Shown here in pieces: positions 24,638 to 54,535 of a stretch of DNA of 60,485 nucleotides. Within the stretch, counting starts at the first letter, position 1, and each line of letters opens with the position of its first letter. A model generated the notes under the pieces. The model was not told the origin of the DNA. It saw only the letters and a program-made list of their open reading frames with translations, and searched no databases. A program made the position numbers and the translations under genes. This DNA comes from a virus (Duplodnaviria; Heunggongvirae; Uroviricota; Caudoviricetes): positions 1 to 60,485 of IMG/VR virus record IMGVR_UViG_2671181056_000013; one strand, written 5' to 3'.

Positions 24638-24884
24638 TTTGAAGATCGTAGAGCTGAAGCCATCGAAAGAGACTGATAACAACAACGTGGAAGTCATCCG
24701 CCTGCTGGAAGAAGCACTTCAGCACGCCAGAGAAGGAAAAAGCCAGAGCCTGGCGCTGTTGATGATCAACAACGACGGCAGTGTTCTTGATTGCTGGCAT
24801 AACGGCGGGCGCCCGTATGTCATGGTAGGGGCGATGGAGTCTCTTCGCCTGGATTTCATCAATGCCAATATCGAGCGCAGGTGA
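24630..24884 (+). CDS. hypothetical protein (84 aa)
   Basis: ORF overlapping its neighbours by 8 and 4 nt, suggesting operon membership. Confidence 0.5.
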   Translation: MPDLKIVELKPSKETDNNNVEVIRLLEEALQHAREGKSQSLALLMINNDGSVLDCWHNGGRPYVMVGAMESLRLDFINANIERR

Positions 24885-25780
24885 TCGACATGGCAGATAT
24901 CATCATCAAACGCTACCGCCCTGAAGAGTTTCCGCGTCATCTGGACTTTCTGGAGCGAATGACTGTCACAAAGGGAACTGTAGAGGACTGGCACGCTCTT
25001 AAGTCGCTTCACTACAAAACAGACGGCAAACCTTTCGCGCCAACTTACTATCGCTGCGAACTTGATGACCGTCTGGTGGGCGTCGTGGTTATGGCTTACC
25101 CGAAACTACTGTTGGCACCTCGCCACCGCATGTTTCCTAAGTTGAAACCAACCACTAATACCACCGTAGCTAACCAGTACTGGGGTCGGTACGTGAATAA
25201 CAACTTTGCGGTGATCAGTCGCTCAGTTGTGGATACTCAGTATCGTGGCGTAGGCGTCTCTTATCGAATGATTAACCTGGTTAGCAGGATGCATGACCGG
25301 CCAATCATTGAGATCCAGTCCTCGATGAGCAAATACAATCCCTTCGCCATGAAAGCAGGGTTTAAGTTCATCCGCCCTGAGCGACCGAAGAGCTATGAAA
25401 GTGCACTGCGTGTATTCCAGCGCCATTTCCGTTCCGACCCTGGTGATAACGAGGCGATCGTCAAAGAGTTGTTCGCAATGAGCGAGTCTCGTCGTCGCCG
25501 TGCACTGCGTGATCTGGTGGCGGACTACCACAAGAACAGTTCCCTGGCAAAAGCTGGGCGGAATCGTGGCACGACGATTCAGGACATTGCCGACAGTCTG
25601 GTGGACGAGGCCAGCATTGTGAAGCTGCTCAAGGACATTCACAACCTGAGCTTTACGTCTCCGTTGTATGGTGTGTACCGAAACCCTGACTTTGGTCGTC
25701 GACTGCCTGACACGCTGCCACTGCTGGCATTCGACAAACAACCTTTGGATAAACCGTTAGAAATTGCTTTACCGGCATAA
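24881..25780 (+). CDS. hypothetical protein (299 aa) with a possible GNAT-like acyltransferase core
   Basis: Q-Y-R-G-V-G-V resembles the GNAT motif A (Q/RxxGxG/A); assignment is tentative. Confidence 0.4.
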   Translation: MIDMADIIIKRYRPEEFPRHLDFLERMTVTKGTVEDWHALKSLHYKTDGKPFAPTYYRCELDDRLVGVVVMAYPKLLLAPRHRMFPKLKPTTNTTVANQYWGRYVNNNFAVISRSVVDTQYRGVGVSYRMINLVSRMHDRPIIEIQSSMSKYNPFAMKAGFKFIRPERPKSYESALRVFQRHFRSDPGDNEAIVKELFAMSESRRRRALRDLVADYHKNSSLAKAGRNRGTTIQDIADSLVDEASIVKLLKDIHNLSFTSPLYGVYRNPDFGRRLPDTLPLLAFDKQPLDKPLEIALPA

Positions 25781-47684: not shown

Positions 47685-50600
47685 ATGTGGTACAGGGAAG
47701 GTACTATCACATTTACACAAGGCAGCAATACTCTGGTTGGTGCTGGGACAGCATGGAACGTTACGGCCAATGGTGTGTTGCCTGGCATGATTGTCGTCGC
47801 ACCTGATAATAAATTGTATGAAATTAAAAGCGTAACAAATGACACAACCTTAACGTTGGTTGAAAACTATACTGGTGAAACGCAAAGTGATATACCATGT
47901 AGGATCATCACTACCTACGAAGGAGATTTGACACAGTTTAGTGCGAGATTTACGGCTCTTTTATCACGAATGTCTGGTGATGCAAAAACAGTTCGAAATT
48001 GGTTAACTGCCGTAGATGAAGTTACTCTTGAGCGAGAAGATGGCACTAATGTTAATGTAAAACCTCTTTCTAAGATTATCGCGGAGCATAATAAGCACGT
48101 AGAATGGTATGAAAATAATACTAACGCAATTAATTCCGCAGGAGATAAAGCAAAACAGGCTGCGGCCAGTGCGTCGGCTGCGGCGAAGAGTGCGAATCTA
48201 GCAAGCAGTAAGGCTACTCAGGCATCTAATAGTGCGTTGGATGCTACAGCGTCTAAAAATGCAGCAAATAAAAGTGCATCAAGTGCTAAAGCATCAGAAA
48301 CAAGTGCTTTAGAGGCGAAGAACGCAGCTGCAATTTCTGCATCAACAGCTTCCACTAAGGCAACAGAAGCCACAAGTTCGGCTAATGCTGCGTTGGTCTC
48401 TAAAGAGGCTGCAAAATTATCTGAAATGAATGCTGCTTCTGGTGCTGGCAGTGCATCAACTTCTGCAAATCAGGCTAGAGAGTCGGCAAGGTCTGCGAAG
48501 ACATCCGCTAATCAGGCTTCAACTTATGCGTCTGCTGCTAGAGCTTCGAAGGATGAAGCTAGCCGAAAGTCTGCTGAAGCCTCAACTAGTGCTAGTAACG
48601 CATCATCGAAATCAGCTGAATCTGCGGCTAAAGCAGAAGAAGCAAAGCAAAGCCAAACATCAGCACTTGCATCGGCAGAGCGTGCAGAGATAGCTGCTAC
48701 TAGAGCAGAAAGAGCTTTGTCAGCGATATCATTACATGATGCCAGTTTGACTATGAAGGGTATTGTCAAATTAAGCAGTGAGACGAGCAGTTCGTCAGAA
48801 GAATTTGCAGCAACACCAAAAGCAGTAAAGGCTGCGTTTGATCTTGCTAAATCAAAATATACTGCAAATGACGCGACAACTTCACAAAAAGGGCTGGTTC
48901 AATTAAGTAGCGATACAAATAACGCCTCTGAATCATTGGCCGCAACAACAAAAGCGGTTAAAAGTGTAAAGGATCTTGCTGATAGAAAAGCAGCAATCAA
49001 CAGCCCAGCATTTACTGGCACACCAACGGCACCAACGGCGACTCAAGGCACTAATAATACGCAAATTGCCACAACTGCTTATGTAAGAGAAGCGATCTCA
49101 GGTCTTGTAGGATCATCACCTGAAGCGCTTGATACTCTTAATGAGTTGGCAAGGGCTTTGGGTGATGATCCCGATTTTGCCACAACAATGACGAACAAGT
49201 TGGCCACAAAACAACCTCTTGATGCTACGCTGACTGCACTGGCTGGACTAACAACAGCCGCTAATAAACTTCCTTATTTTACAGGGAATGATACAGCTGG
49301 ATTAGCAACAATAACTTCTGTTGGTCGAGATATTCTTTCTAAAGCAAGTGTACAGGCGATTATTCAGTATCTTGGATTGAAGGAAAATGGAACAAGTGGC
49401 GATAAAATACCTTTATTGAGTACAGCCAATACATGGAGTGCAAAGCAAACATTTAGTAATGGTCTTGCAGGCTCACTTAACGGAAATTCCGATACCGCAA
49501 CAAAATTAAAAGCAGCACGAAAAATTGGCGGAGTACCGTTTGATGGTTCATCAGATATAAATCTACCAGGTGTAAACTCAACAGGAACTCAGAGTACTAG
49601 TGGAAACGCTGCCTCTGCCACTAAGTTAGCAACACCTCGTTCAATTGGTGGAATGTTATTTGACGGCACTGCAAATATTGACTTACCAGGCGTTAACAAG
49701 GTTGGAAATCAGAGTACAACAGGTAATGCAGGGAGCGCAACGAGACTGCAAACGGCAAGAACAATAGGTGGGGTATCGTTTAATGGCACTGCAAATATTG
49801 ACTTACCTGGTGTCAATAAAGCTGGAAATCAGAACACGTCAGGTAATGCTGCAACGGCGACAAAACTTGCAACGGCACGAAAAATAAATGGGGTCAGTTT
49901 TGATGGCTCAAAGAATATAAGCATCACGCCAAAACAACTAGGTGCAGCAAAATATGTTGCTAATCTTGCTACGGGGAATACTCAAGAGTGGACAACTGCA
50001 CAATTTGTCGCATGGTTAAATTCACAAGGGGCATTTGATGCAACTCAGTGGAGCACACGTTGTAGCTGGTCTTATGGTAGTAACTGTTATATAGGAAATG
50101 CATCAACGGGATGTGGAGTTATACCTCTTGCTGGTTCTGTTATTGAGGTGTTTTCAACCGGTACAAGTAATTACACTATACGCATTACAACACCTTCAAC
50201 ATCTGGAGGTGCATCTGGTGCTGTTCTTAATAGTGAGTTTATTTATACATACAACGGCGATAACTATAGCCCAACATGGCGTCGTAATTACAGTTCTCAA
50301 AATAAACCAACGGCTTCAGAGATAGGCGCCCTTGCCTCAAATGGAAATGCAGTTTCGGCTACGAAACTGAAAACAGCGAGAAATATAGGGGGGGTATCGT
50401 TTGATGGTACAGCGAATATAGATTTACCAGGCGTTAACAAAGCTGGAAATCAGAACACATCAGGTAATGCTGCAACAGCTACTAAATTAAAAACATCAAG
50501 AACAATAGGTGGAGTATCATTTGATGGTAGCGCAAACATTAATCTTCCAGGTGTGAATACGTCAGGAAATCAGAATACATCTGGTAACGCAGCATCAGCA

Positions 50601-51056
50601 ACTAAGCTACAAACAGCACGTACTATAAATGGAGTAAGTTTCGACGGAACAAAAAATATTAGTATAAGTGCCGCTCAAATTGGTGCTTTGCCTATCGGTG
50701 GGGGTACGATAACAGGTAATTTGACTGTAAATGGAAATGGCTCATTTAATGATGTTCAGATCCGCTCAGATAAGCGTAACAAGCGTAATCTGGTAAAGCT
50801 AGATAATGCGTTAGATCGTTTGGAGGCACTTACTGGTTATCTTTATGAAATCCAACTCTCTGATGATAGTTGGAAAACGTCAGTTGGTTTAATTGCTCAG
50901 GATGCACAAAAAGCATTGTCTGAACTGGTAACTGAAGACACAGACGTTATATCTGGTGAAAAACGTCTGTGTCTTAACTACAACGGCATAATTGCATTGT
51001 TAGTCGAGGGCTTTAAAACACTTCGTCATGAGATTAAAGAACTTCGGGAGAAGTAA
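47685..51056 (+). CDS. tail fibre with internal repeats and a C-terminal intramolecular chaperone domain
   Basis: Repeated GVSFDG..NI.LPGVN..GNQNTSGNAA.ATKL units, and a C-terminus resembling auto-cleaving chaperone domains of L-shaped fibres and endosialidases. Confidence 0.8.
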   Translation: MWYREGTITFTQGSNTLVGAGTAWNVTANGVLPGMIVVAPDNKLYEIKSVTNDTTLTLVENYTGETQSDIPCRIITTYEGDLTQFSARFTALLSRMSGDAKTVRNWLTAVDEVTLEREDGTNVNVKPLSKIIAEHNKHVEWYENNTNAINSAGDKAKQAAASASAAAKSANLASSKATQASNSALDATASKNAANKSASSAKASETSALEAKNAAAISASTASTKATEATSSANAALVSKEAAKLSEMNAASGAGSASTSANQARESARSAKTSANQASTYASAARASKDEASRKSAEASTSASNASSKSAESAAKAEEAKQSQTSALASAERAEIAATRAERALSAISLHDASLTMKGIVKLSSETSSSSEEFAATPKAVKAAFDLAKSKYTANDATTSQKGLVQLSSDTNNASESLAATTKAVKSVKDLADRKAAINSPAFTGTPTAPTATQGTNNTQIATTAYVREAISGLVGSSPEALDTLNELARALGDDPDFATTMTNKLATKQPLDATLTALAGLTTAANKLPYFTGNDTAGLATITSVGRDILSKASVQAIIQYLGLKENGTSGDKIPLLSTANTWSAKQTFSNGLAGSLNGNSDTATKLKAARKIGGVPFDGSSDINLPGVNSTGTQSTSGNAASATKLATPRSIGGMLFDGTANIDLPGVNKVGNQSTTGNAGSATRLQTARTIGGVSFNGTANIDLPGVNKAGNQNTSGNAATATKLATARKINGVSFDGSKNISITPKQLGAAKYVANLATGNTQEWTTAQFVAWLNSQGAFDATQWSTRCSWSYGSNCYIGNASTGCGVIPLAGSVIEVFSTGTSNYTIRITTPSTSGGASGAVLNSEFIYTYNGDNYSPTWRRNYSSQNKPTASEIGALASNGNAVSATKLKTARNIGGVSFDGTANIDLPGVNKAGNQNTSGNAATATKLKTSRTIGGVSFDGSANINLPGVNTSGNQNTSGNAASATKLQTARTINGVSFDGTKNISISAAQIGALPIGGGTITGNLTVNGNGSFNDVQIRSDKRNKRNLVKLDNALDRLEALTGYLYEIQLSDDSWKTSVGLIAQDAQKALSELVTEDTDVISGEKRLCLNYNGIIALLVEGFKTLRHEIKELREK

Positions 51057-51141
51057 ACGACAGCTGTTGGAGTTTCTGGTTTCTACTGAATTTAAATTGT
51101 GGGGGTGATACTCACCCCACGCATTCAAAAGGAGGGGTAAA

Positions 51142-51654
51142 ATGGGGGTAGCGTCGGGATGGGTCGGTTCTTCGGCTAAGAGCGAAACGGGCGAACAATG
51201 GATGAGCGCTGCGGGTACTAAGTTAGGATTGGGTAAACCTTTTATGATGAGTCAAATGGTGGGACGATCTATGGGCTGTAAAATTGCAACCGCTTACTAT
51301 AAAGGGAATCCTCCTGATAAAGTCGAAAACTGGGGGGCTGTAGGTTCAGATTGGCCATTGGCTGAAAAGAACCAAGGTACAATTGCTGGTGCTTCGAGCT
51401 GTGGTTTAGGTCGTTTAGTGGGGATCGTGCTTACGCAAGCTCACTACGTTCCTGGTTTACCGCCCACTGGGGGTTTATACATCGCAGGGGGAAGGGCAAG
51501 CAATATTACAGTAACAGTTGGTGGAGTCTCACAAGTTTTTACTTACAATAGTGTTATTAACGGTTTTCACTATTACTGGCAAGGAACACCTAGTTCGGCC
51601 TTTATAACGGCAATGAAAAGGACGGGGGTTACACAAGATTTGAAAATTAGTTAA
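51142..51654 (+). CDS. hypothetical Gly-rich protein downstream of the tail fibre (170 aa)
   Basis: ORF with GGAGGGG RBS; function unknown. Confidence 0.5.
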   Translation: MGVASGWVGSSAKSETGEQWMSAAGTKLGLGKPFMMSQMVGRSMGCKIATAYYKGNPPDKVENWGAVGSDWPLAEKNQGTIAGASSCGLGRLVGIVLTQAHYVPGLPPTGGLYIAGGRASNITVTVGGVSQVFTYNSVINGFHYYWQGTPSSAFITAMKRTGVTQDLKIS

Positions 51655-51751
51655 AATATAAAAGGTTATATATTATTTAAATTTCAGTTGATATTTAAAT
51701 TACATAAAATTATGTAAGGGGATATTAAAATAGATTGCTCATGGAGGAAGC

Positions 51752-52075
51752 ATGGCTAATGACGTAGGAGGCGTCACTCATGATCAGGTTGAGAGAATAG
51801 CTAAAATTGTCGCCAGAGAAGTTGTTGGTAAATTAGGAAAAGAAATCAGAGAGGAGATAGTTCATGAGGTTCATGAGCAGTTGAAAAACTATTTTGGTGA
51901 CATGACTCCGGCTCAACACAGTATTCAACATTCCAATCTGGATAAACTACTTAATAGGTTAGATTCGATCTCAAGCGGCTTCTTTGGAGGCATTATTTCT
52001 AAAGTGACGTCGTTTATTATAACCGCACTAATTTTAGGATTAGCCGCATATGGCGTAAAAAATGGACTGCAATAA
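51752..52075 (+). CDS. putative holin-like membrane protein
   Basis: 107 aa with a C-terminal hydrophobic helix; first gene of the lysis cluster, AT-rich upstream region. Confidence 0.45.
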   Translation: MANDVGGVTHDQVERIAKIVAREVVGKLGKEIREEIVHEVHEQLKNYFGDMTPAQHSIQHSNLDKLLNRLDSISSGFFGGIISKVTSFIITALILGLAAYGVKNGLQ

Positions 52076-52088
52076 CAGGAGAACAAGG

Positions 52089-52781
52089 ATGAAGACTCCG
52101 AGAGGCATTCGTAATAATAACCCCGGTAATCTTGATAAAGGATCACCGTGGCAAGGTCTGGTTGCGAATCCAGACGAACCTCGCTTTTGCACGTTTAAAG
52201 ACCCTGTTTGGGGTATTCGTGCTCTGGCAGTGACTCTAATTACCTACCACGATAAACGTCGCGCCAAAGACGGCTCAAGTATTGATACCATTCGCGAAGT
52301 TATTGAACGTTGGGCACCGCCGAATGAAAACAACACTGACACCTACATTAATGAGGTGTCTAAAGCTGTTGGTGTAACCGCAGACATGATCATCGATCTG
52401 CATGATTACGACATCCTTCGACCTTTGGTTGAGGCAATCATTCGCCATGAGAATGGGCGAGGTCCGCTAAAAACGCTGAACACCTGGTATGCGGCAGAAG
52501 TTATTGAGGAAGGTCTGCGTCGAGCTGGAGTCGTTAAGCCGGTGAAAACCGTGAAGGCTGTTCCTGTAACTAAAGAAACAGCAGGCGCAACTGTTACAGC
52601 AGGTATTGGTCTGGCGCAGCTGGCCGATGTTATGCCGCAGGTTTCCGCTGCTATGGATAAAGCACAAGGTCATATCTCTAGTGGGGATACAGTACGCATC
52701 ATCTTCGGTATTGCCACTATTGTTGTGGCAGGATTCATTGCCTGGTCGCAGGTAAGAAAACACCAGAAAGGGATGGCCTAA
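52089..52781 (+). CDS. putative endolysin-position protein with C-terminal transmembrane segment
   Basis: Sits between the holin-like and spanin genes; hydrophobic segment IIFGIATIVVAGFIAW near the C-terminus. No catalytic family recognised by eye. Confidence 0.4.
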   Translation: MKTPRGIRNNNPGNLDKGSPWQGLVANPDEPRFCTFKDPVWGIRALAVTLITYHDKRRAKDGSSIDTIREVIERWAPPNENNTDTYINEVSKAVGVTADMIIDLHDYDILRPLVEAIIRHENGRGPLKTLNTWYAAEVIEEGLRRAGVVKPVKTVKAVPVTKETAGATVTAGIGLAQLADVMPQVSAAMDKAQGHISSGDTVRIIFGIATIVVAGFIAWSQVRKHQKGMA

Positions 52782-52782
52782 T

Positions 52783-53034
52783 ATGCTAGGTAGCCTGATG
52801 ATAAAGCTAAAAGTTGCTTTGATTACTCTGGCTGCCGTTCTTTTCGTTCTGGTCGGCGCTTACACGATGGGCGGAAATGCGGCGCGACGAGCAATGGAAG
52901 AGAAGGCAAAACAGGAAGACAGGAAACGACTTCAAAGCACAGTGGATGTCAAAAATGAAACACTTGATGAGTTACGGCGCAAAGATGCTTCTACTGTTCA
53001 TCATGAGTTGCACAATAAGTGGTTGCGTGATTAA
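52783..53034 (+). CDS. i-spanin (Rz-like)
   Basis: N-terminal transmembrane helix followed by a charged coiled-coil-like region. Confidence 0.6.
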   Translation: MLGSLMIKLKVALITLAAVLFVLVGAYTMGGNAARRAMEEKAKQEDRKRLQSTVDVKNETLDELRRKDASTVHHELHNKWLRD

Positions 53035-53185
53035 GCCTCAATCCTCTGGTGTGCTTTTCTGCGATGCGGCTACACCGCTATACATCAGCCGTGATGATCT
53101 CATGACCGAAGAGACTGAAAGGGAAGTACTTTTTCACAATATGATAGGGGAGCGATTGTGTGGATGGGGCAGAAAAGTGCCATAA
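52955..53185 (+). CDS. o-spanin (Rz1-like lipoprotein), overlapping Rz in another frame
   Basis: Signal peptide with lipobox TISGC inside the +1 frame of the i-spanin gene; extends past the i-spanin stop. Confidence 0.6.
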   Translation: MKHLMSYGAKMLLLFIMSCTISGCVIKPQSSGVLFCDAATPLYISRDDLMTEETEREVLFHNMIGERLCGWGRKVP

Positions 53186-53359
53186 TAAAAGCGGAATTTT
53201 CTAACATAAAATTTGCATATTATTAGAGCACAAGGTAGATTTGAAGCATGGATGTCAAGTAAATCATACCTTGTTTTAATAAATCGACGCATACTCGTAG
53301 CCTCTAAACCGACAAGGTCGCCGCTATGACATAAAGTTATTACCGGCTAAGGTGGAAAC

Positions 53360-53758
53360 ATGCATACTGCGCTTAACGCATCTCGTTCTATTCAGACGAT
53401 AAGAGACTGTACCAAGATGATCGCATCGGTTCCGTTGCGGCATTGGAATGACTCGCTCCAAATTCGTGAAATGAACAAACCGGGTATGCTTAAGGATCAG
53501 CGTTTCATCGTTAACCTTAAAAGTGACGTTGAAGAAGGCAAGTTTACCATCAAATTGTTTGCAGAAATGATGGTGCTCAACAATCGGTTACGTTTTCTTG
53601 TTAAGCCAGAAAAACAGTTTCCCGATGTTGTGCGTTGTGAACAGGATGCTTTCTATGAGATTGAAAGCAAAATAGCTAAATTTATCAAAGATAAATACCG
53701 CGTAGATGTTAAAATAGCGAAACTGGATTCATCTACGGATATGCGGCTTGCTAACTAA
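53360..53758 (+). CDS. hypothetical protein (132 aa), first gene of a two-gene cassette
   Basis: AT-rich promoter-like region upstream; GGTGGAAA RBS; stop abuts the next start. Confidence 0.55.
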   Translation: MHTALNASRSIQTIRDCTKMIASVPLRHWNDSLQIREMNKPGMLKDQRFIVNLKSDVEEGKFTIKLFAEMMVLNNRLRFLVKPEKQFPDVVRCEQDAFYEIESKIAKFIKDKYRVDVKIAKLDSSTDMRLAN

Positions 53759-54535
53759 ATGTCACCATCATTCATAGCAGAGTATTCAAAAGTACTGTCT
53801 GATTTCCCTGAATGTGAAGCAAGAGAGAAAATCAGAGTTGGCTACATGGTTAACTCTGATTTTTCTGTTTTACGGCTCACAGAGTGGTCCTTGATCGGGT
53901 CTAATTATGATTACTGTTTGACAGTGTCATTTGTAGGCGACCCTGATGCAGATTGGCTTCAAGAACATGCAATGGATCTTGACGAGCAGGGGCATTCAGA
54001 AGAAGAGATAGTTCATAGTGTTCGTGAATTAGTTGGTGATGAGCAAGAAGATGATGACGGCATTCAGATCGCCAGGTTCGTCTACAAACGATTCCAGTTT
54101 CGCTCACAAAAAGGCTCTCACCTTGGGGTCCAGATTAAAGGGGCATTTGTAACCCCTTCAAAGGAACAAAAGGGACTTGCTAGAAGAGTTTACAATTTTC
54201 TTCTCAATTGGCATGACCATGTAGTATGTGATGACCATCAGACGGTTTACGGTGCCAGAATTTGGGCTGTAGGTATGCTTTTGGTCGGTCGTGTCCAAAT
54301 CTATGACAATTTAAATAAAGAATTTATAGATGTCCTTGTTGAAGGTGGTATTGGGCAGAATGGCGTCAAACCGTGGGATGCGCTGCTATTGAACAGCGAG
54401 GCTCAGTTACGTCACTGGAACCCTATGGCTGTCAGCATAGACCCATCTAGTCAGATTCTCACCATCATCTCCAAAGAAGACCGCCACATTGAAGTGGGCG
54501 TTACAACATTTGATGCCAGGTCTACCAACCACTAA
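53759..54535 (+). CDS. hypothetical protein (258 aa), second gene of the cassette
   Basis: Start immediately follows the upstream stop; terminator 9 nt after its own stop. Confidence 0.6.
   Translation: MSPSFIAEYSKVLSDFPECEAREKIRVGYMVNSDFSVLRLTEWSLIGSNYDYCLTVSFVGDPDADWLQEHAMDLDEQGHSEEEIVHSVRELVGDEQEDDDGIQIARFVYKRFQFRSQKGSHLGVQIKGAFVTPSKEQKGLARRVYNFLLNWHDHVVCDDHQTVYGARIWAVGMLLVGRVQIYDNLNKEFIDVLVEGGIGQNGVKPWDALLLNSEAQLRHWNPMAVSIDPSSQILTIISKEDRHIEVGVTTFDARSTNH

Follow-up and report, generated by a model that had tools for sequence, protein, structure and literature searches.

An SSU5-like phage-plasmid endolysin of the Enc34/M4Lys family with a C-terminal membrane module

The lysis cassette

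The window, by which we mean the whole stretch of DNA that was analysed (60,485 nucleotides; positions 1 to 60,485 of IMG/VR record IMGVR_UViG_2671181056_000013), is an SSU5-like phage-plasmid. Its lysis genes form a cassette of four genes placed after the tail-fibre genes, in which the gene for the 230-aa protein studied here adjoins that of a 107-aa protein with one transmembrane (TM) segment on its 5' side and an overlapped pair of i- and o-spanin genes on its 3' side (table 1). The first-pass annotation had recognized that a gene between holin-like and spanin genes would normally encode the endolysin, and the protein found there does belong to an endolysin family (below). The AGGAG upstream of the gene is separated by 8 nt from the ATG at 52089, and similarity to the phage Enc34 endolysin starts at residue 3 of the 230-aa product (phmmer against the PDB). 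An in-frame alternative, the ATG at 52062, falls within the 3' end of the upstream gene and would yield a protein of 239 aa; the ribosome-binding site and the homology from residue 3 favor 52089 as the likely start. A promoter and terminator scan of positions 51500-53500 gave counts at or below the shuffled expectation.

Table 1. Features of the lysis cassette (window coordinates).
Feature	Coordinates	Strand	Basis
Putative holin or lysis-timing protein, 107 aa, first cassette gene	51752..52075	+	ORF; hydropathy; phrog_5093
AGGAG, putative ribosome-binding site for endolysin start	52076..52080	+	read from sequence
Endolysin gene, Enc34/M4Lys type	52089..52781	+	ORF, 230 aa + stop; PHROG 873, PDB 7Q47, Foldseek
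Enzymatically active domain, residues 1-151, PHA02564 type, all-helical	52089..52541	+	7q47_A alignment, AlphaFold2, Foldseek
Trp75 codon (Enc34 Trp79, paper numbering)	52311..52313	+	mapping, 38-sequence invariance, PMC8943055
Tyr86 codon (Enc34 Tyr95)	52344..52346	+	mapping, 38-sequence invariance, PMC8943055
Glu121 codon, in IIRHENG (Enc34 catalytic Glu131)	52449..52451	+	mapping, 38-sequence invariance, PMC8943055
Cationic linker, residues 144-163, net +5, ends in near-invariant PVTKE(T)	52518..52577	+	charge and conservation counts
Helix 1, residues 164-192, weakly hydrophobic, Gly/Ala/Thr-rich, partly amphipathic, SAR-like composition	52578..52664	+	hydropathy, Hessa, AlphaFold2
Helix 2, strong transmembrane, residues 201-222	52689..52754	+	KD19, Hessa, AlphaFold2
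Cationic C-terminal tail RKHQKGMA, net +3	52755..52778	+	charge count
i-spanin, 83 aa, N-terminal TM	52783..53034	+	phrog_1026 Rz-like spanin, E 4e-23
o-spanin, 76 aa, lipobox ISG-C24, overlaps i-spanin gene out of frame	52955..53185	+	phrog_1275, E 4e-23

The first 75 or so residues of the 107-aa protein are charged, and its only TM, at about residues 76-100, is C-terminal. Its phrog_5093 match carries no function, and its counterparts in phages SSU5 and Cyrano are labelled 'holin'. The family numbers 29 clusters and, among phages, 12 records, all from SSU5-like elements of Enterobacterales. It shows no similarity (BLASTP E 12) to the protein encoded at the same place in chi-like phages and Enc34 (ORF38), which combines an N-terminal TM with a C-terminal coiled region; nor does it resemble, at E 1e-3, the 99-aa protein that lies upstream of an endolysin homologue on an Alcaligenaceae contig and that has a C-terminal TM and a similar architecture. 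Other contigs with distant homologues have, in the same position, a 114-aa protein of the chi type (a metagenomic contig) or an 85-aa protein that has no TM at all (a Pasteurella multocida prophage).

The genes on the other side vary less. Three of the four contigs of distant homologues have an i-spanin-like gene after the endolysin; on L008, a contig of an Alcaligenaceae genome, the gene called next encodes a lipoprotein-like candidate for an o-spanin. The window i-spanin is 30% identical to Enc34 ORF40, with a C-terminal KW.R..D in common. When its o-spanin (for which an ATG at 52946 is also a possible start) is aligned with Enc34 ORF41 and the o-spanin of phage iEPS5, SGC and GERLCGW are invariant, and the SSU5 o-spanin has been placed in the Chi family group (PMC6139136). 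Since the types of upstream protein differ while the endolysin and spanin genes stay together, the endolysin-spanin unit is conserved in these gene orders and the first gene is interchangeable. This agrees with experiments on the endolysin of Salmonella phage BSPM4, M4Lys, whose partner gene product (non-homologous to the 107-aa protein) is dispensable in vitro (PMC7143992).

Family, fold and spread of the endolysin

The 230-aa protein matches PHROG 873, "endolysin", with E 1e-87, and chain A of PDB entry 7Q47 with E 9.3e-54 and 58% identity (phmmer, PDB), its residues 3-151 aligning to residues 6-168 of 7q47_A. This entry is the "Endolysin from bacteriophage Enc34, catalytic domain", Enc34 being a Hafnia phage. 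No Pfam-A or NCBIfam family scored above cut-off, so the first-pass remark that the product has no known lysozyme, amidase or peptidase motif holds for the classical families only; the signature motifs of the PHA02564/Enc34 type (GIRNNNPGN, ERWAPP and IIRHENG) are all present. An AlphaFold2 model built from 38 homologues has pLDDT values of 84-97 over residues 30-150, and a Foldseek search with it returned 7q47_B and 7q47_A as the best PDB matches (E 1.4e-15, TM-score on the target 0.81, 59% identity). The next match was 9VVP, a core protein of phage E1004, and the remaining listed matches had E > 0.5. The residue described as catalytic in Enc34 (Glu131) and two others conserved with it (Trp79 and Tyr95; PMC8943055, whose numbering is the RefSeq numbering minus one) correspond to Glu121, Trp75 (within ERWAPP) and Tyr86 of the window protein, and all three are invariant in the alignment of 38 homologues, in which identity falls as low as 56%. 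A tblastn search of the window, tape-measure and tail genes included, found no second copy of this type of catalytic domain. The protein is thus an endolysin, and with so clear a match in profile and structure searches the first-pass suggestion of a new lysin type falls away: both the lysin type and its C-terminal membrane domain have already been published.

That literature describes an endolysin family of odd architecture in phage Siskin (PMC6498227, 2019), in M4Lys (PMC7143992, 2020) and in Enc34 ORF39 (PMC8943055, 2022). The truncated Enc34 domain is muralytic on permeabilised Escherichia coli, Pseudomonas aeruginosa and Hafnia alvei, and the full-length protein is toxic (PMC8943055). Truncated M4Lys strips GlcNAc from muropeptides, which points to N-acetylglucosaminidase activity; there is also a hint of endopeptidase activity, so its bond specificity is not fully settled (PMC7143992). 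By analogy with these homologues, which are 55-59% identical to it, the window enzyme would be muralytic with N-acetylglucosaminidase specificity.

Enc34 ORF39 (YP_007007038) is 58% identical to the window protein over the full length and shares with it the all-helical domain with its catalytic Glu, Trp and Tyr, the linker, the two-helix C-terminal module, the cationic tail and a position before homologous overlapped spanin genes. The two differ in that the window protein has two loop deletions (5 and 6 residues) and a linker 5 residues longer, in the unrelated upstream gene (C-terminal TM in the window, N-terminal TM in Enc34 ORF38) and in the host element, which is a chi-like virulent siphovirus in the case of Enc34 and an SSU5-like phage-plasmid here. 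The chi-like endolysins (iEPS5, SPN19, Chi) belong with M4Lys, to which those of this group including iEPS5 are 97-99% identical (PMC7143992); the iEPS5 protein is 55-59% identical to ours over the full length, with the membrane module and cationic tail in common and a different partner gene. Closer still are the orthologues gp027 of SSU5 (93% identical) and CYRAN_23 of Cyrano (near-identical by eye, from the translations), both within identical cassette layouts and both annotated as endolysins, labels that rest on position and profile. The GH73/GH23 glycosidases TM0633, phiKZ gp144 and MltC differ from this fold in a permuted helix order, the absence of a beta-lobe and the lack of sequence similarity, and no GH73/GH23 structure is among the best 50 Foldseek PDB matches listed.

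Homologues of the endolysin fall into 1815 protein clusters. Its catalytic domain is matched in 789 of 50,697 phage records, and in 182 of these 789 the match covers at least 80% of the query and so includes the membrane module; versions consisting of the domain only are the endolysins of D3112 and 9g. The combination of domain and C-terminal membrane module has been regarded as confined to the chi-like phages and a small number of related ones (PMC8943055). This view is too narrow, since the architecture is present in SSU5-like phage-plasmids and on contigs from Pasteurella, Alcaligenaceae, Photorhabdus, Xenorhabdus, Providencia and Cronobacter, and it extends well past the chi-like phages named in the literature. 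The 1.5-kb cassette itself is 100% identical in four Shigella sonnei plasmids, is 78% identical to that of Salmonella phage SSU5, and is matched in 651 PLSDB plasmid records from Klebsiella, Escherichia, Enterobacter, Salmonella, Citrobacter and Shigella. Among the matches listed, the plasmid genes under it are labelled "hypothetical protein" or "membrane protein" only, because the family has no Pfam or NCBIfam model; these plasmid-borne copies can safely take the annotation "Enc34-type endolysin".

The C-terminal membrane module

A hydrophobic helix near the C-terminus in place of an N-terminal signal-anchor had been noticed on the first pass, and hydropathy analysis bears this out. The maximum lies at residues 204-222 (KD19 2.07), a weaker Gly/Ala/Thr-rich hydrophobic segment lies at 164-186 (KD15 maximum 1.28), and hydrophobicity is limited to 164-186 and 201-222; residues 1-30 are hydrophilic, and no N-terminal signal or SAR domain is present by this measure. 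The protein thereby resembles the SAR endolysins (P1 Lyz, R21) as a membrane-tethered lysis enzyme and differs from them in having its anchor at the C-terminal rather than the N-terminal end; the T4-lysozyme-like catalytic domain of R21 is moreover unrelated to its own. The two predicted helices are unequal. The best 19-residue Hessa sum of helix 1 is +7.76, with a G/A/S/T fraction of 0.58, and that of helix 2 is 1.16. AlphaFold2 places helix 1 at residues 175-192 with low pLDDT (residues 159-183 are below 50) and helix 2 at residues 199-226. The net charges of the window protein (family means in brackets) are +5 (+3.5) in the linker, residues 144-163, -1 (-1.5) in the loop, residues 187-202, and +3 (+2.2) in the tail, residues 222-230.

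As judged from the homologue alignment, this C-terminal part is well conserved for a segment presumed to be an anchor. Residues P159, V160, T161, K162 and E163 at the end of the linker are conserved at 92-97%; G174, Q177, A188, S198 and Q221 are invariant in the 38 sequences; and G199, G207, A214, I217 and A218 are conserved in more than 90%. The two-helix module with its cationic tail aligns without large gaps to the C-termini of the Enc34 and iEPS5 proteins, and helix 2 is the homologue of the distal helix that M4Lys and Enc34 need for lysis or toxicity. In the latter, residues 1-211 (the domain plus helix 1) are tolerated, whereas the full-length protein abolishes growth (PMC11657235). M4Lys by itself lyses E. 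coli, azide does not block this lysis, deletion of the membrane domain or of the last 13 residues alone abolishes it, and the membrane domain alone is bacteriostatic (PMC7143992). Carried over from these homologues, 55-59% identical, lysis by the window protein would need the membrane module and would need neither a holin nor the azide-sensitive Sec pathway.

Two ideas about the module were examined and set aside. An internal start at Met182 or Met189, ahead of helix 2, would give a product consisting of the module only. We reject it: fewer than half of the homologues (47%) keep Met189, Ala is the usual residue at position 182, and a Shine-Dalgarno sequence is not apparent. The module might also have been a fused holin (a "Rosetta stone" arrangement). 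Its 82 C-terminal residues, searched against 1.84 billion representative proteins, returned only 24 matches. All 12 of the short or odd-length matches that were read proved to be truncated, frameshifted or chimeric calls of the same family, and, three long proteins apart (2110-4580 aa; E 2.7e-5 to 3e-4), the others have family-typical lengths. The search turned up no independent holin family related to the module, and the fused-holin idea therefore gains no support from it.

A likeness in pattern only does exist to the phage 21 pinholin S21-68, which we used for calibration after verifying its sequence in record OL657228. This protein also has a weak G/A/S/T-rich helix, a strong helix and a cationic tail; its SAR TMD1 has a Hessa sum of 6.44 and a G/A/S/T fraction of 0.63, and its hole-forming TMD2 a sum of 1.01, so that the pairs of sums are 7.76/1.16 in the window protein and 6.44/1.01 in S21-68. 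Homology between them is rejected (BLASTP E 0.69), and the two differ in that S21-68 is a small stand-alone protein, whereas the window module, among the 1.84 billion representative proteins, is seen only joined to the catalytic domain or in gene fragments.

Proposed route of the enzyme to the cell wall

We put at roughly 85% the probability that this protein is an SSU5-like phage-plasmid endolysin of the Enc34 ORF39/M4Lys family that acts by tethering at the membrane followed by release, in the following way. The catalytic domain would cleave peptidoglycan in its glycan strand, Glu121 serving as the catalytic acid and Trp75 and Tyr86 positioning the substrate, and the cationic linker would connect it to the two-helix module (164-192 and 201-222) and the cationic tail. 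Only 8 residues separate the end of helix 2 from the stop, and this helix leaves the ribosome only after termination, so the module would insert only after translation, which fits the azide insensitivity and Sec-independence reported for M4Lys. Under the positive-inside rule the charges of the linker (+5), loop (-1) and tail (+3) favor an N-in/C-in hairpin, which would hold the folded enzyme at the cytoplasmic face of the inner membrane. As the protein accumulates, helix 2 would damage the membrane in a holin-like manner and the enzyme would reach the wall; the 107-aa upstream protein may set or modulate the timing, and the spanin pair would then disrupt the outer membrane. Tethering at the cytoplasmic face and subsequent membrane failure caused by helix 2 is, in our judgement, the most likely course. 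Several points tell against parts of it. Helix 1 is a poor TM candidate (Hessa +7.8, low pLDDT), and the module may instead consist of a single span and an interfacial helix; the predictors used by the M4Lys authors put the N-terminal domain in the periplasm (PMC7143992); and an enzyme tethered on the cytoplasmic face would still need a lesion large enough to let it reach the wall.

A bolder version of this course would make the C-terminal module a built-in pinholin-like device, so that one polypeptide joins holin and endolysin functions. Here the SAR-like helix 1 would exit the bilayer, and helix 2, thus released, would form oligomers that open the membrane; the folded N-terminal enzyme would thus be brought to the wall without Sec or a separate holin; and the interchangeable upstream gene, whose product has an N-terminal TM in the chi/Enc34 group, a C-terminal TM in SSU5-like elements and Alcaligenaceae and no TM in the Pasteurella prophage, would be a timing or anti-holin regulator only. 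We hold this view tentatively, as a possibility that has the odds somewhat against it.

The domain might, alternatively, be on the far side of the membrane from the outset. In such a case the protein would be an exported, tethered enzyme like the SAR endolysins with reversed polarity, helix 2 being a single-pass N-out/C-in anchor; export would be Sec-independent, the domain would be held inactive at the membrane, and depolarisation by the 107-aa protein, acting as a pinholin, would release or activate it. The cationic tail (+3; family mean +2.2) suits a C-in orientation, the hydrophobicity of helix 1 is too weak for a confident second span, and Phobius and Phyre2 gave N-out for M4Lys (PMC7143992), whose holin-independent lysis resembles that of SAR endolysins; the authors of the Enc34 study raised this model as well (PMC8943055). 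However, the linker at +5 (family mean +3.5), with its near-invariant PVTKE, points to the cytoplasmic side by the positive-inside rule, an N-terminal signal is absent, azide did not block M4Lys lysis (PMC7143992), and the domain would have to cross the membrane without any known export route. We consider export of this kind unlikely.

It is very improbable that the protein is a virion-associated (ejection) peptidoglycan hydrolase instead of an endolysin. The same domain does form the N-terminal part of internal core, tape-measure and injection proteins of other phages, it is named as a 'virion protein' domain in CDD (PMC7143992), and our searches matched phrog_7182 (a tail injection transglycosylase), phrog_2276 (tape measure), phrog_992 (head protein), internal virion protein D of Kayfunavirus phages and core protein Gp29 of phage E1004 (9VVP). 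The window product, in contrast, is a stand-alone protein of 230 aa in a four-gene spanin cassette after the tail-fibre genes; over its full length, membrane module included, it is shared with proteins that lyse cells from within; and the tape-measure and tail genes are among those in which tblastn found no further copy of the domain. Least probable of all, and nearly negligible, is a non-enzymatic holin partner with an inactive N-terminal domain that acts through its membrane module alone, for although Pfam and NCBIfam matches are lacking and the M4Lys membrane module alone is bacteriostatic (PMC7143992), neither the catalytic Glu, Trp and Tyr nor any part of the groove signature varies, the protein shares 58% identity with the Enc34 enzyme, whose activity has been measured, and the window has no further copy of the catalytic domain. 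The first-pass proposal of a holin-associated factor accordingly survives in part: a non-enzymatic role is unsupported because the catalytic residues are invariant, and what remains of it is that the C-terminal module of the studied homologues is holin-like and membrane-damaging.

With tethering at the cytoplasmic face and release by helix 2 as the preferred course, the residual interest of this protein lies in the route to the periplasm, which is a family-wide matter, and in the distinct partner gene of the SSU5 clade. The possibility of a pinholin-like module likewise concerns the whole described family and is not specific to the window; if it is true, it would represent a mechanism of lysis or export without characterised precedent. 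The cassette of the SSU5 type supplies a second and independent partner gene for studies of how a signal-less, C-terminally anchored enzyme makes its way to the periplasm.

First genes of the lysis cassettes

The putative holin encoded by the first gene of the cassette (table below) has about 75 residues of charged sequence, followed by a single transmembrane helix and only seven further residues, and is thus tail-anchored; we know of no characterised holin class with this layout. Its family is tiny, with 29 clusters that are confined to SSU5-like phage-plasmids, and it corresponds to PHROG 5093, which is listed there as function unknown. It is unrelated to the partner protein of the chi-like phages and Enc34, whose transmembrane segment lies instead at the N-terminus and is followed by a long, coiled C-terminal part. 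Both RefSeq and PHROG 7686 label the latter protein (iEPS5 gp37, Enc34 ORF38) an "Rz-like spanin", whereas the Enc34 and Siskin papers took it as the holin (PMC8943055; PMC6498227). Since Enc34 has a separate i-spanin of its own, ORF40, the spanin label on the ORF38-type protein looks like a mis-annotation, or else the role of this protein is unsettled. In the Pasteurella multocida contig no transmembrane helix is predicted in the 85-aa product of the gene directly upstream of the endolysin, and this element may lack a separate holin.

Coordinates of the lysis genes and neighbouring features
Feature	Location	Remark
Putative holin (107 aa)	window 51752-52075	First gene of lysis cassette; tail-anchored layout
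Tail fibre (1123 aa), then T-even gp38-like adhesin (170 aa)	window 47685-51654	Upstream of cassette
Two co-oriented ORFs (132 aa, 258 aa)	window 53360-54535	Between lysis cassette and parA
iEPS5 gp37	L001 (iEPS5 locus) 1150-1488	First lysis gene
Enc34 ORF38	L004 (Enc34 locus) 24820-25164	First lysis gene
85-aa protein	L006 (Pasteurella multocida contig) 2231-2488	Directly upstream of full-length Enc34-type endolysin

Genes on either side of the cassette

The tail fibre contains many copies of a motif of about 40 residues (…GGVSFDG(S/T)ANI(D/N)LPGVN..GNQ.TSGNA.SATKL.TAR.I…), and the adhesin that follows it matches PF21721 Gp38_N (E 5e-20) and phrog_1121; in phage Cyrano no gp38-like gene is annotated at the corresponding position. 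The 132-aa and 258-aa ORFs gave no match in a Pfam search and belong to phrog_2594 and phrog_3307, respectively, both of function unknown. Cyrano has a KacT-type acetyltransferase toxin-antitoxin pair there instead, and the position looks like a variable accessory slot.

Endolysin homologues in other phage records

ORFs in three Microviridae genomes of about 6 kb (MG945220, MG945262 and bajarodmic virus 1103) match the first ~90 residues of the endolysin's catalytic domain at 37–48% identity, and one of the three is annotated "P5-like structural protein". These alignments suggest that the peptidoglycan-hydrolase domain of the Enc34-type endolysin is present in some microviruses. A full-length homologue that includes the membrane module (50.6% identity) is encoded by OR506460.1, "Enterococcus phage AS-M1_NWU"; assignment of this phage to an Enterococcus durans host is doubtful, because its lysis protein is of the Gram-negative type. 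The stated host of this 58.7-kb genome is E. durans, and its size is about that of a chi-phage.

Annotation of the cassette in plasmid records

Neither Pfam nor NCBIfam has a model for the Enc34-type endolysin family, and the spanins and 107-aa protein of the window likewise have no match in either. In the 15 PLSDB plasmid rows among the matches listed, those cassette genes that carry any annotation are called only "membrane protein" or "hypothetical protein", and the remaining rows come from unannotated records; this amounts to a systematic gap in annotation.
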